Shown here: in pieces, positions 1-3,637 of the stretch
How positions within the stretch are numbered: position 1 is the first letter of the stretch
Layout: each line of letters opens with the position of its first letter
NCBI GenBank assembly: GCA_029548865.1
Contig: JAKPMO010000024.1
Span: 32,001-96,000 of the forward strand
Source of the DNA: Caldisericota bacterium
GTDB taxonomy: Bacteria; Caldisericota; Caldisericia; JAAYUI01
Direction: 5' to 3'
Length of the DNA stretch: 64,000 nucleotides
The notes under the pieces: model-generated
The model's input: only the letters and a program-made list of their open reading frames with translations
Told to the model about the DNA's origin: nothing
Database searches by the model: none
Position numbers and translations under genes: made by a program

Positions 1-1415
1 TTGCCCCGTTCCCGATAAAAGTGGAGCAACTTTCACGATTTAAGGGGAAAACCAGCCAGAAAAAAGTTGTGGAAGGCATCACCGATGGATCAATCGAAAT
101 GGTCATTGGCACCCATCGCCTCCTGCAAAGTGACATCAAATTCAAGGATTTGGGGTTGCTAATAATTGACGAAGAGCAAAGGTTTGGCGTCGAGGACAAA
201 GAGAAGATCAAAAGACTCAAAGAAAATATTGATGTCTTAACCCTCACCGCAACCCCAATCCCAAGGACGCTCGAAATGGCGCTGACTGGAGTGAGGGAGA
301 TTTCGCAGATCAATTCTTCTCCAGAAGGCAGAAAACCAGTCAAGACATACGTTCAGGCATACTCGGAAACTGCCGCAAAAGAAGCCATTGAAATCGAGCT
401 TGCAAGGGGCGGCCAGGTCTATTACGTCAACAACAGAATACAGGGCCTCGGTTCCATCATGTGGAAGCTCAAGAAGATTGTACCCAATGCAAGGATTGCC
501 ATAGCACACGGGCAGATGGATAGCGACGAGCTTGAGGACATAATGCTCAGCTTCTACAAGGGCGAGATCGATGTGCTCCTGTGCACAACAATCATAGAAT
601 CGGGCCTGGATATCCCAACTGCAAACACAATAATCGTAGAAAACGCACAAAACCTTGGCCTGGCGCAGATGTACCAGCTTAGGGGAAGGGTCGGAAGGTC
701 AGAAAAAAGGGCCTACGCATACTTCTTCTACAACTCCGAAGAAGCCCTGACAGAAACAGCCAGAATGAGGCTTGAGGCAATAAGGGATTTTGTTGATCTC
801 GGAGCGGGCCTCAAGATAGCAATGAGGGACCTCGAAATAAGGGGCGCAGGCAACATGCTTGGAGCAGAACAGTCCGGGCACATAGCCGCAGTTGGCTATG
901 ACCTGTACCTTAGGTTGCTTGAGGACGCAAAAAAACAGCTCCAGAAATCACATGATGGAAAACCTATGAGACCGGAGGCACCACCGCAGGAATGCAATGT
1001 TGACCTCAGGGTTTCAGGTTTCATACCAGAACACTACGTTCCTGACGAAGCGCTAAGGATTGATTGCTACCAGAGGCTCGTGAGCGCTGAAACAATCGAT
1101 CAGGTGAAATCAATCGAACACGAGCTCCAGGACAGGTTCGGAAGACCACCGCCAGAGGTGGAATCACTTTATGAGCTTGTAAAAATAAGGGTTCTTGCCC
1201 AATCAATGGGAATAAACTCCATCGTTGAAGACAATCTGACACTAAACTTCCACTTTGGTCCAAATGTAAAACTCAGGGAAGACTTCCTGGACAGGCTAGT
1301 GGCAAGGTTTGGCGAGAGGACCACTGTCAGGCCAAACATGATTAGAATCAGAAAACAAAGAGACAACCCCGTAAAGCTGGCAAGAGAATTCATCGAGCTT
1401 GCCTGCGAGGATTAA
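1..1415 (+). CDS. mfd: Transcription-repair coupling factor (5'-truncated by window edge)
   Basis: Helicase motifs IIDEEQRFGV, TATPIPRTL, QLRGRVGR, TRG motif DLEIRGAGN, C-terminal TRCF domain; frame is open back to position 3. Confidence 0.97.
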   Translation, partial: APFPIKVEQLSRFKGKTSQKKVVEGITDGSIEMVIGTHRLLQSDIKFKDLGLLIIDEEQRFGVEDKEKIKRLKENIDVLTLTATPIPRTLEMALTGVREISQINSSPEGRKPVKTYVQAYSETAAKEAIEIELARGGQVYYVNNRIQGLGSIMWKLKKIVPNARIAIAHGQMDSDELEDIMLSFYKGEIDVLLCTTIIESGLDIPTANTIIVENAQNLGLAQMYQLRGRVGRSEKRAYAYFFYNSEEALTETARMRLEAIRDFVDLGAGLKIAMRDLEIRGAGNMLGAEQSGHIAAVGYDLYLRLLEDAKKQLQKSHDGKPMRPEAPPQECNVDLRVSGFIPEHYVPDEALRIDCYQRLVSAETIDQVKSIEHELQDRFGRPPPEVESLYELVKIRVLAQSMGINSIVEDNLTLNFHFGPNVKLREDFLDRLVARFGERTTVRPNMIRIRKQRDNPVKLAREFIELACED

Positions 1416-1417
1416 AA

Positions 1418-2635
1418 ATGAACTTTTCCTGGATAATAGAGAAGGAGCTGATGATTTCATCAGCTCCAGAGAACATACAAATGCTTTCAAGGCTCAGAGA
1501 CACTGGCATAAAAGCTGTGGTTTCACTTTCCCAGTTACCATTCACCGATAAAGATTTTGAAGATCTGGGGCTTTTCAATCTCAAGCTCCAGATTCCGGAA
1601 GACAAACCACCAACACTTGAGCAGTTGAGGGAATTCATATTCTGGGCCGGATTTATGAAAAAACATGGATTGCCCCTGCTGATTCATTGCCAGGAAGGTT
1701 ATGAACGTTCTGCAACGCTGGCTGCATGCTATCTTGTAATATTTGAAAATATGACAGCAAACCAGGCAATCGAGGAAGTGCGTGCAATAAGAGGTGACAA
1801 CTCGGTTGCATTTCTCCACAATCAGGGATTTGTCAACGAGTGTGAGTATGTGAAGCCACTTTTGACAAACACTTCCGACATCTCTTTCTATGAAGCAAAG
1901 CTCCTCATTGATCTGCTCAGAAGGCACTGCCCCTGGGACAGGGAGCAGACCCCTAACAGCATGATGCAAAACCTTCTTGAAGAAACTTATGAGGTCTGGG
2001 AAGCAGTCAAACAGAAAGACATGGCCCACATAAAGGAAGAACTCGGAGACATCCTACTCCAGGTGCTGATGGTCTCGAGAATGCTCTCGGAAGAGCAATC
2101 ATTTAGCGTTGAAGATGTAATTGCCACAATGCAGGAAAAACTTGTTTACAGACATCCACATGTTTTTGGGGAGAGCAAGACAAAAACGGTTGACTCTGTT
2201 CTTGACCAGTGGAACAGCCTCAAAAAGCAGAATAAAAACAATGGGTCAATAAGGGATATCCCATCAAATCTCCCGCCACTCGGCAGGGCCGAAAGAATAA
2301 TGGCTCATGCAAAGGGCCTCGGGTTCGACTGGGACAAAACCGAAGGGGTCCTGGAAAAACTGGATGAAGAAATCCAAGAGCTCAAAGAAGCCATCCAGAC
2401 CAAAGACAAGGGCGAGGTTGAAAACGAACTTGGAGACGTTTTTTTTGTTTTATTAAATCTGGCCAGATTTCTTGATGTAGGCCCGGAAGTGGCACTTTCA
2501 AGAACATTGGACAAATTCATAAAAAGATTTGAAAAGATAGAGAACCATTCAAACGAGACCGGAAAACCAATTGGCCAGATGACTTTGGGAGAGATGGATG
2601 AAATCTGGAATAAGGCCAAAAAGGACCATCAATAA
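1418..2635 (+). CDS. mazG: Fusion: N-terminal dual-specificity/PTP-like phosphatase + MazG nucleoside triphosphate pyrophosphohydrolase (two MazG domains)
   Basis: N-terminal HCQEGYERS (CX5R P-loop) and AIEEVRAIR; C-terminal CPWDREQT, EETYEVWEA, EELGDILLQV, RHPHVF, ENELGDVFF MazG motifs. Confidence 0.9.
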   Translation: MNFSWIIEKELMISSAPENIQMLSRLRDTGIKAVVSLSQLPFTDKDFEDLGLFNLKLQIPEDKPPTLEQLREFIFWAGFMKKHGLPLLIHCQEGYERSATLAACYLVIFENMTANQAIEEVRAIRGDNSVAFLHNQGFVNECEYVKPLLTNTSDISFYEAKLLIDLLRRHCPWDREQTPNSMMQNLLEETYEVWEAVKQKDMAHIKEELGDILLQVLMVSRMLSEEQSFSVEDVIATMQEKLVYRHPHVFGESKTKTVDSVLDQWNSLKKQNKNNGSIRDIPSNLPPLGRAERIMAHAKGLGFDWDKTEGVLEKLDEEIQELKEAIQTKDKGEVENELGDVFFVLLNLARFLDVGPEVALSRTLDKFIKRFEKIENHSNETGKPIGQMTLGEMDEIWNKAKKDHQ

Positions 2636-2695: not shown

Positions 2696-2890
2696 GTGAG
2701 CTGTAAAAAAACAAATAGCACCAAGTGCAATTGTACCCATGAACCGTGCGAGCGCAAATACAGATGCTGTGAATGTCTATCGTTCCACAAATCACAAAAT
2801 GAGCTCCCGGCCTGTTATTTTACTGTGGAGGAAGAAAAAACTTACGACCGTTCTATAAGTTTTTTCTGCAAAAACCATGTCAAAATTTAA
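2696..2890 (+). CDS. Small Cys-rich protein (DUF6485-like)
   Basis: [21 protein letters not shown]...ELPACYF...EKTYDRS pattern recalled from this family. Confidence 0.75.
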
Positions 2891-3593
2891 TCCCTCCCCC
2901 TCAATGAACGAGGGCACATTCGCATCAGAGATCATAAACAGGTCCCTCCTCTATGGAATTCTCGGCTATCTTCCAGAGGAAATCTGCAATGTTCTTGTCC
3001 TCGATGGACCAAAACAGACCCAGATGGCGCTCATCCTTGAAAATGCCGGCTACAAGGTGGCAAGAATATGCCCGCAAAAAGATGACGACCCAACATGTAT
3101 AGCCTCGACAACCGAAGGAATAGATGGAGAGAGCTTCGGGGTCGTAATTTGTCCTGGCTGGCTCTCTGACAATGAAGATCCGGAAAAAATTTCAAGAGAA
3201 GCAATGAGGCTCCTTGTGCAGGGTGGCTTCTTTTTTGGTAGTGTACCTGGAAGATTTGCGGCAGCAGTCGACTGCGTCCCCCAATCAACAAGCAATGCGT
3301 CAAGCATTGCAAACGGAATAGACGAAACCCAGTGGTGGGGTACCAAAGAACTTTTCACCCCAAACGACATCGCCTGTGAACTTGAGGCCATAGGATTTGA
3401 GGTCGTTGACCTGTATGGTTGGGAACACGCTCTGACAAAGCTGCCTGGCGAAAAACTATCTGCAACAGACTGGGACGAGGGCTTCTTTGAAGACTTTCTG
3501 GAGCTGGAATTCAGGCTTGCTCAGGAGAGATCAATCCTTGGCATGGCCCCAACAATCCAGTTTGTGGCAAAAAAACCAAACCCAGAGCCATAA
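2877..3593 (+). CDS. Class I SAM-methyltransferase-fold protein with degenerate SAM motif I
   Basis: [42 protein letters not shown] resemble methyltransferase strands; glycine-rich motif I absent. Confidence 0.55.
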
Positions 3594-3609: not shown

Positions 3610-3637
3610 AAAAAAGGCCCTCCAATGGAGGGCCTTT
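3610..3637. terminator. Intrinsic terminator between convergent genes
   Basis: AAAGGCCCTCC-AAT-GGAGGGCCTTT hairpin with A/T tails. Confidence 0.8.

Follow-up and report, generated by a model that had tools for sequence, protein, structure and literature searches.

Why should a cysteine-dependent phosphatase be joined to MazG in a bacterium of the phylum Caldisericota, and on what would it act there? Caldisericota are anaerobic bacteria, and MazG is a Mg-dependent dimer that splits (d)NTPs which are damaged or in excess, leaving (d)NMP and PPi. Directly behind mfd, the 64,000-nucleotide stretch of DNA analysed here (the window) holds one gene in which both parts are encoded. Its features are the following.

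3..1415, + strand: 3' part of mfd (transcription-repair coupling factor), truncated by the window start; matches to TRCF (90.2 bits), Helicase_C and DEAD
1407..1411, + strand: GAGGA, Shine-Dalgarno-like as read from the sequence, within the final mfd codons and 6 nt 5' of the ATG
1418..2635, + strand: DSP-MazG fusion gene, 405 aa, a single unbroken ORF
1418..1864, + strand: phosphatase domain of the DUSP23/VHZ/Tk-PTP type, residues 1-149, by Pfam, fold match and family profile
1592..1612, + strand: acid loop (D-loop) IPEDKPP, residues 59-65; by alignment, Glu61 stands at the family's Asp position, with Asp62 adjacent
1616..1663, + strand: helix 67-82 of the model; position 79 is F, L or Y in 85/88 fusions, dead ones included
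1685..1711, + strand: P-loop HCQEGYERS, residues 90-98, with C91, G94 and R97, and E96 before the Arg
1802..1825, + strand: Q-loop SVAFLHNQ, residues 129-136; the Glu of IET is lost, Q136 retained
1871..2236, + strand: N-terminal half of MazG, with E189, E192, E208, D211, K241, R245, W265 and K269
2276..2626, + strand: C-terminal half of MazG, with E317, E318, E321, E337, D340, K366, R370, W397 and K401

The mfd stop codon (TAA, 1413-1415) is followed by two nucleotides (AA) and the ATG of the fusion gene at 1418, and the TGC codon of C91 occupies 1688-1690; an earlier interpretation of the bare sequence (the sequence-only reading) had given start and Cys codon exactly. The location of GAGGA inside the end of mfd suggests that translation of the two genes may be coupled. 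RNA-library contigs identical to the window, although as contigs no proof of transcription, cross the junction of mfd and the fusion gene, and none of them spans the phosphatase/MazG domain junction with 31 bases on each side. Promoter and terminator predictions were near chance (4 vs 2.8 and 5 vs 3.0, respectively). In an AlphaFold2 model of the fusion protein (pLDDT 89.3, pTM 0.71, from a 22-row alignment) the domains meet in two successive helices (133-149 and 152-170) without a low-confidence linker.

An assembly artefact or chance read-through joining two genes has next to no probability and was rejected, since the same single-frame fusion recurs in three other species of the genus at 92-93% identity and across all seven families, and 98-100% of the words of the stretch recur in 14 DNA runs, which are non-independent and each possibly its source. 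The fusion is confirmed as real and as the normal MazG of the phylum, and the separate domains or assembly-made fusion against which the sequence-only reading had cautioned did not appear among the relatives.

By profile, ligands and all-alpha fold, the C-terminal part is a tandem MazG NTP pyrophosphohydrolase. Pfam MazG (PF03819) matches two stretches of it with 130.7 bits, and NF007113 (287.6 bits, cut-off 208) and TIGR00444 (252.9 bits, cut-off 148.3) are both passed, while the match of the YabN model NF052436 is confined to residues 154-402 and, at 282.9 bits, falls short of the cut-off (525). The model superposes on E. coli MazG (3CRA) with Z 13.9 and rmsd 3.7 over 230 residues (Foldseek E 3e-10). 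Metal ligands of the pattern EExxE...ExxD occur in both halves (E188/E189/E192/E208/D211 and E317/E318/E321/E337/D340), together with basic residues. Five of the N-half residues (E189, E192, E208, D211, K241) are invariant in 89/89 loci and R245, W265 and K269 in the 88/88 that reach them; the catalytic residues of the C-half are invariant in all 76-79 loci holding it in the same frame.

The N-terminal part belongs to the DSP fold of the PTP superfamily. For residues 2-134, PTP-SAK scores 54.5 bits (cut-off 27) and DSPc 47.7 bits (cut-off 33.5), Tc-R-P matches the domain with 44.2 bits (cut-off 27), and the P-loop follows H-C-x-x-G-x-x-R-S/T, the motif by which PMC13687992 defines it. The best structural match is VHZ/DUSP23 (Z 23.7, rmsd 1.5, 143 residues aligned), followed by SsoPTP (Z 23.0) and Tk-PTP (Z 22.6), with Foldseek concordant; among solved structures, the family profile comes closest to CCaDUSP (PDB 25XA, E 1.8e-37). 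Phosphatase and complete tandem MazG in one chain, as first proposed from the letters, are thus borne out by Pfam, NCBIfam profiles and model superposition, which assigns a DSP fold to the N-terminal and a MazG fold to the C-terminal part and so supplies the structural match on which that proposal depended. Helix 67-82 probably serves as docking face on MazG.

A likeness to DSP enzymes of RNA 5'-triphosphates or polyphosphorylated metabolites found no support: folds of that kind (BVP, PIR1, Siw14) rank 29-36 with Z 16.0-16.9, far under VHZ, and the P-loop of the window's copy is acidic. Those enzymes have a basic or polar P-loop.

Stand-alone DSP paralogues occur in addition to the fusion in 4/4 genomes of the window's genus and in 2/3 of genus g3, and in none where Cys/Arg are lost. 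The one in the window's genome (G000:C27:51828-52289, 154 aa) has the P-loop HCHAGMDRT and is without the IET Glu. Around stand-alone DSP relatives in Dehalococcoidia and around the fusion of family f3, the neighbouring genes, judged by ORF starts only, suggest no common pathway.

A MazG match was found in 89/93 genomes of the phylum. Loci from 90 genomes were examined; one of them consists of the phosphatase part only, at a contig end, which leaves 89 MazG loci. In 88 of these the open frame extends for 131 residues or more ahead of the CPWD motif, and the remaining locus is cut by its contig. The fusion is phylum-wide, a fact missed in the earlier interpretation, and the nearest named relatives of the protein come from Caldisericales/Caldisericia genomes. 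Among our family labels, f4 includes Caldisericum exile and the Caldisericaceae, f2 is Ca. Cryosericum, and f7 is the phylum's other class, whose records are labelled Caldisericota or Coprothermobacterota. In f3 MazG is split: one gene encodes the phosphatase and the N-half, and an overlapping second gene the C-half (L118:3472-4649, L119, L120, L122).

No clear case of the fusion outside the phylum was found in our profile searches and 50 outside loci. When 1.84 billion representatives were searched with the profile, full-length matches ranked at the top and the others among the best 150 of 35,737 hits were MazG-only proteins, and a DSP frame was found at 0/50 MazG loci outside Caldisericota. 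A weaker search for longer proteins with the domain profile (7999 candidates) gave 13 matches, 12 with MazG and a thirteenth (P0003) 87% identical to the query. P0126, with 40% identity to its nearest Caldisericota relative and a locus that was not found, is placed within the MazG tree of the phylum with a support of only 82. One NCBI record labelled Actinomycetota lies within a 90% cluster of Caldisericia proteins and is probably a binning label error. Long MazG relatives carry other partners, namely the tetrapyrrole-methylase domain PF00590 in 66/96, in agreement with the sequence-only reading for MazG of the Firmicutes type, and Nudix in 2/96. A single origin of the fusion is possible; the best tree implies two changes, and the starred branches force one.

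Synteny with mfd is common: in 78/89 loci mfd immediately precedes mazG in the same orientation, and three loci lie at contig ends. This does not single out the phosphatase. In M. tuberculosis (Rv1020-Rv1021), mfd likewise lies next to mazG and is transcribed together with it (bioRxiv 10.1101/2020.02.10.941963); one Clostridium locus (L050) has a YabN-type gene close to mfd; the canonical fusion is found away from mfd in 8/8 f3 genomes; and dead copies of the fusion remain behind mfd. The position therefore reflects inherited operon order and reveals nothing special about the phosphatase, and the special link to transcription-coupled repair that had been proposed finds no support, since the mfd-mazG operon is known without a phosphatase and the canonical fusion of f3 lies elsewhere.

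The state of the phosphatase differs strongly between lineages. Canonical sites with D-loop Asp, HCxxGxGR and a Q-loop Glu of the IET type were found in 25/88 loci (genus g2, f3, f5 and f6). Fourteen loci keep Cys and Arg and are altered otherwise (four in the window's genus g1, three in g3, two in g22 and five in f4), and the remaining 49 have lost Cys and/or Arg (21 in f2, 21 in f4, seven in f7). At least four changes of Cys/Arg state are required on the MazG tree, read from quick trees with a poorly resolved backbone. Judged by these residues, more than half of the genomes carry a dead phosphatase, which the earlier interpretation likewise missed, and its extra activity would be dispensable there.

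Of the 49 dead extensions, 22 are recognised as DSP by HMM (E<0.01), six in g14 and g19 by profile comparison (probability 65-90%), and the 21 of f2 by fold only. A model built from f2 sequences (pLDDT 64.6) gave, for its N-terminal range, 13 rows among the 50 listed, all PTP/DSP, the best being VHZ (Z 5.5, rmsd 3.2, 98 aligned). At this middling Z, the extension of Cryosericum, the most degenerate of all, may be the old DSP domain; a profile-profile comparison between the two gave no link (0.5%, reversed control 0.2%).

The site of the window's copy is non-canonical. C91, G94, R97 and S98 agree with the P-loop consensus, and two small residues are replaced by Glu (E93 and E96); the D-loop reads IPEDKPP against I-x-D-F-x-x-P in the family, and the Q-loop VAF in place of IET. 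The P-loop previously called intact is so in its consensus Cys, Gly, Arg and Ser, within a site that is otherwise remodelled and has both usual acids changed; likewise the segment IPEDKPPT does align as the D-loop and offers Glu61 instead of the family's Asp. Both acids of the dual-acid subgroup of VHZ, Tk-PTP and CCaDUSP are accordingly missing from the window's copy. In CCaDUSP, D67 and E135 both act as acids (PMC13687992), and two catalytic acids are likewise described for Tk-PTP and VHZ (PMC12848742).

The remodelled domain shows selective constraint. C91, G94 and R97 are among 21 invariant positions of 127 in 17 members of the non-canonical family (mean identity 52%, range 36-100%). In the window's genus dN/dS is 0.083 for the phosphatase domain and 0.062 for the MazG N-half (six pairs, dN ratio 0.88). 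The ratio of domain to MazG dN ranges from 0.88 to 1.67 in six genera keeping Cys/Arg and from 1.66 to 6.03 in seven that lost them; the dead domains, with dN/dS of 0.16-0.33, are still under purifying selection. All these values are home-made Nei-Gojobori counts from non-independent pairs, six genera having no usable pairs after filtering. By these counts, purifying selection on the window's phosphatase domain appears as strong as on MazG, with no sign of decay.

Where, then, could the acid be? The residue before the P-loop Arg is Gly in 30/30 canonical proteins and an acid in none of them, while an acid stands there in 9/14 non-canonical loci from two separate lineages. Counted over proteins, 14 of the 17 members of the non-canonical family have Asp or Glu before the Arg, as do both loci of the separate lineage g22; the window genome's stand-alone paralogue combines an acid at this place with absence of the IET Glu. 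In three family members Gln stands there and no acid is obvious, the Q-loop of P0007 reads ICN instead of IET, and the five non-canonical copies of f4, with a hydrophobic residue or Ser before the Arg, look like decay. As MptpB-like enzymes and myotubularins have their general acid at this position (PMC3091653), it is a fair suggestion by analogy that the general acid may have moved into the P-loop, as Glu96. The analogy has its limits: those enzymes belong to other subfamilies, use Asp, preceded by Lys in MptpB, and act on phosphoinositides. Y_phosphatase3 and its kin are not among the 13 Pfam families matched at E<=0.1, and the likeness, confined to one position, is probably convergent.

Two further cysteines of the domain, C104 (1727-1729) and C142 (1841-1843), are non-catalytic and do not vary among the 17 members of the non-canonical family; canonical g2 has Ala in place of C142. 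They could possibly form a back-door redox pair.

With a probability of about 0.4, we consider the phosphatase to be a nucleotidase that completes the clean-up by MazG within a two-activity nucleotide-cleaning enzyme. The MazG dimer would first cleave damaged or surplus (d)NTPs to yield (d)NMP plus PPi; the fused Cys phosphatase would then take the last phosphate off the (d)NMP, through a phospho-Cys91 intermediate and with Arg97 holding the substrate, and the resulting nucleoside could not be re-phosphorylated back into the triphosphate pool. In this role the domain would stand in for the nucleotidase SurE, which is absent from the window's family; as an accessory activity it would have been lost repeatedly where SurE is present, the domain being retained as a structural part. 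In the window's genus Glu96, or else Glu61/Asp62, would probably replace both changed acids.

The distribution of SurE carries this reading. Among 64 scored genomes (at least 85% complete and with known phosphatase state; 3/67 were not scored), all 29 that lost Cys/Arg possess SurE, all 20 without SurE keep Cys/Arg, and 15 have both, so that SurE and Cys/Arg are together absent from none. SurE is present in 0/10 genomes of f1, 1/10 of f5, 0/2 of f6 and in all of f2, f3, f4 and f7; the window's genome gave no SurE match. Further points in favour are the placement of Nudix, another nucleotide-cleaning enzyme, in MazG's N-terminal slot in those two long relatives, the fact that the Pfam families matched by the domain take their names from fusions with RNA-repair proteins and with NAD kinase, and the prediction that related phosphatases remove phosphates from ADP-ribose derivatives (PMC9503650). 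We rank the nucleotidase first because the forbidden combination shows no exception and because it accounts for MazG as the partner; the nucleotide-sanitising half of the earlier proposal is in this sense kept as the best reading, at odds below even.

Several observations weigh against it. The SurE pattern corresponds to two tree changes, as compared to four for Cys/Arg, and supported branches give two independent pairs only, so that no significant test of the SurE or the kinase pattern discussed below is possible. The Ser/Thr kinases follow the intact domain about as closely as SurE fits its loss. The eight canonical f3 genomes also carry SurE, and the window's genome has possible substitutes in three matches to the HAD family and in a frame of 1318 aa that contains 5'-nucleotidase domains. 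The characterised close relatives CCaDUSP, Tk-PTP, VHZ and SsoPTP are all classed as protein phosphatases, and we met no report of a nucleotidase activity for these four. Since dead domains are retained too, the fusion may have persisted through structural entrenchment.

These relatives lead to a possible, though rather doubtful, second explanation, which follows closely behind the first. A dual-specificity protein phosphatase that reversed the action of Hanks-type Ser/Thr kinases would have been fused early to its operon neighbour MazG, become structurally bound to it, and died with the loss of the kinases. It has the better homologues: CCaDUSP shares the P-loop type, and its two acids D67 and E135 (PMC13687992) are kept in 25/88 fusions. 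Strong kinase matches (E<=1e-30) were found in 29/35 genomes keeping Cys/Arg and 6/29 that lost them, and within f4 in 3/4 and 4/16, respectively. The window's genome (93% complete) holds five kinase matches and gave no match to PP2C, SpoIIE-type or LMW-PTP phosphatases, and PP2C_2 reached E<=1e-15 in only 6/55 genomes. But kinase matches are absent in 6/35 genomes keeping Cys/Arg, three fully canonical f3 genomes included, and this pattern, too, comprises two independent pairs only. CCaDUSP itself turns over pNPP at a very low rate (kcat 0.017 per min), and no natural substrate is established for it. The stand-alone paralogue of the window's genus could serve the kinases; in the window's genome no tyrosine kinase exceeded its cut-off and no McsB, the arginine kinase, was found. 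Above all, MazG as the partner is left unexplained.

As to the kinases themselves, each f1 genome of 2 Mb contains 5-9 Hanks-type matches (e.g., on G000:C9, C17 and C28), often within frames some 1200 aa long, and PP2C_2 is matched at E<=1e-15 in only 1/10.

For the window's genus alone, it is conceivable but unlikely that a weak or dead phosphatase acts as scaffold or sensor, packed against MazG and adjusting it by binding phosphate or by the oxidation state of Cys91. This would suit the loss of both family acids and the two Glu in the P-loop, the purifying selection on the 49 domains without Cys and/or Arg, the DSP fold modelled even for Cryosericum, and the hydrophobic helix face conserved at position 79. 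Moreover, the non-canonical genera g1 and g3 have a stand-alone paralogue as well, present in 0/4 canonical g2 genomes, C104 and C142 are invariant as noted, and M. tuberculosis MazG requires its unrelated N-terminal region for activity (PMC10014863). Against such a role stand the invariance of Cys, Gly and Arg across 36-100% identity, a domain dN close to that of MazG, unlike in the dead lineages, and the catalytic function of an acid at position 96 in MptpB-like enzymes (PMC3091653).

Alarmone clearing, the other activity envisaged by the sequence-only reading, is improbable. MazG would cut (p)ppGpp at its 5' end and the phosphatase at its 3' end, or else the phosphatase would destroy the PPi released by MazG. 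The chemistry is plausible, Rel synthetase is found in 87/93 genomes, and a soluble family I pyrophosphatase exceeds its cut-off in only 6/93. However, neither Rel nor this pyrophosphatase covaries with phosphatase state, Rel was not found in the window's genome or in G001, and an acidic P-loop is ill-suited to polyanions, for which such enzymes use basic residues (PMC3091653). PPi hydrolysis was rejected separately, as the phosphatase shows no covariation with membrane pyrophosphatases either, which are present in 54/55 genomes whatever its state. The missing RelA/SpoT synthetase matches in these two genomes (93% and 90% complete) may be due to missing contigs or to real loss.

Compared with known systems, the phosphatase-MazG combination unites familiar parts. 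E. coli MazG (PDB 3CRA/3CRC; NF007113/TIGR00444) shares the tandem all-alpha organisation, both acidic motifs and CPWD plus RHPHVF; it has no N-terminal domain and is not located behind mfd, its gene sitting in the relA-mazEF operon. YabN of the B. subtilis type (NF052436) also places an accessory domain of about 150-230 residues ahead of a tandem MazG near mfd (the one locus mentioned above), but its accessory fold is methylase-like, and PF00590 gave no match in the window protein at E<=0.1. The Nudix-MazG fusion (P0153) has a second hydrolase in the same slot, of Nudix fold, and was seen as database proteins. The extra N-terminal region of M. tuberculosis MazG comprises some 85 residues, with no description as a phosphatase. 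On the phosphatase side, CCaDUSP from Ca. Chlorohelix allophototropha (25XA), Tk-PTP (5Z5A), human VHZ/DUSP23 (4ERC) and SsoPTP (2DXP) show the same minimal fold and P-loop motif and are stand-alone proteins; canonical Caldisericota copies have both the D-loop Asp and the Q-loop Glu, as in the CCaDUSP/Tk-PTP/VHZ group, from which the window's copy differs by Glu61, the missing Q-loop Glu and the pair Glu93 and Glu96.

A full-text literature search, covering listings and abstract starts, returned no description of a DSP-MazG fusion; Burroughs and Aravind 2016 and 2023 (NAR Genom Bioinform 5:lqad029), the likeliest places for one, lay outside its scope. The fusion is apparently an undescribed phylum-wide combination, in agreement with the first impression of an unfamiliar architecture. 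Its weight is that of a lineage-specific union of two enzymes which are each well known. Still, DSP becomes the third kind of N-terminal MazG partner after methylase-like and Nudix domains, and an annotation is corrected, as databases label such proteins plain MazG or 'tetrapyrrole methylase/MazG'. CCaDUSP, the closest small prokaryotic DSP, has a structure and no known natural substrate (PMC13687992); the fusion suggests a candidate substrate class, testable with one protein, a C91S mutant and natural dead orthologues including that of the cultured Caldisericum exile. If the nucleotidase reading were true, it would give small prokaryotic DSPs their first physiological substrate and, together with the moved acid, make the phylum a natural series of canonical, rewired and dead forms for studying change of mechanism and formation of pseudo-enzymes. 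Taken as a whole, the picture of a DUSP23-type domain, a kind known to date as protein phosphatase only, that serves as nucleotidase in a two-step sanitising enzyme, replaces SurE in whole families and has shifted its acid from the outer loops into the P-loop in one family and a separate second lineage, is rather unlikely to be right in every part.

Downstream of the fusion gene, a 64-aa cysteine-rich ORF (2696-2890, + strand; DUF6485 at 23.1 bits, under the cut-off of 24) is present in 5/90 loci, four from the window's genus and one from g3. It is overlapped by a 238-aa ORF (2877-3593, + strand) with a weak Methyltransf_11 match (17.8 bits, cut-off 21.2) and no NCBIfam match. An 11-pair hairpin at 3613-3637, with a terminator score on both strands, separates the mfd run from a convergent ymdB-rny-recX-recA run, in which ymdB was named via Pfam and the other genes from their translations.
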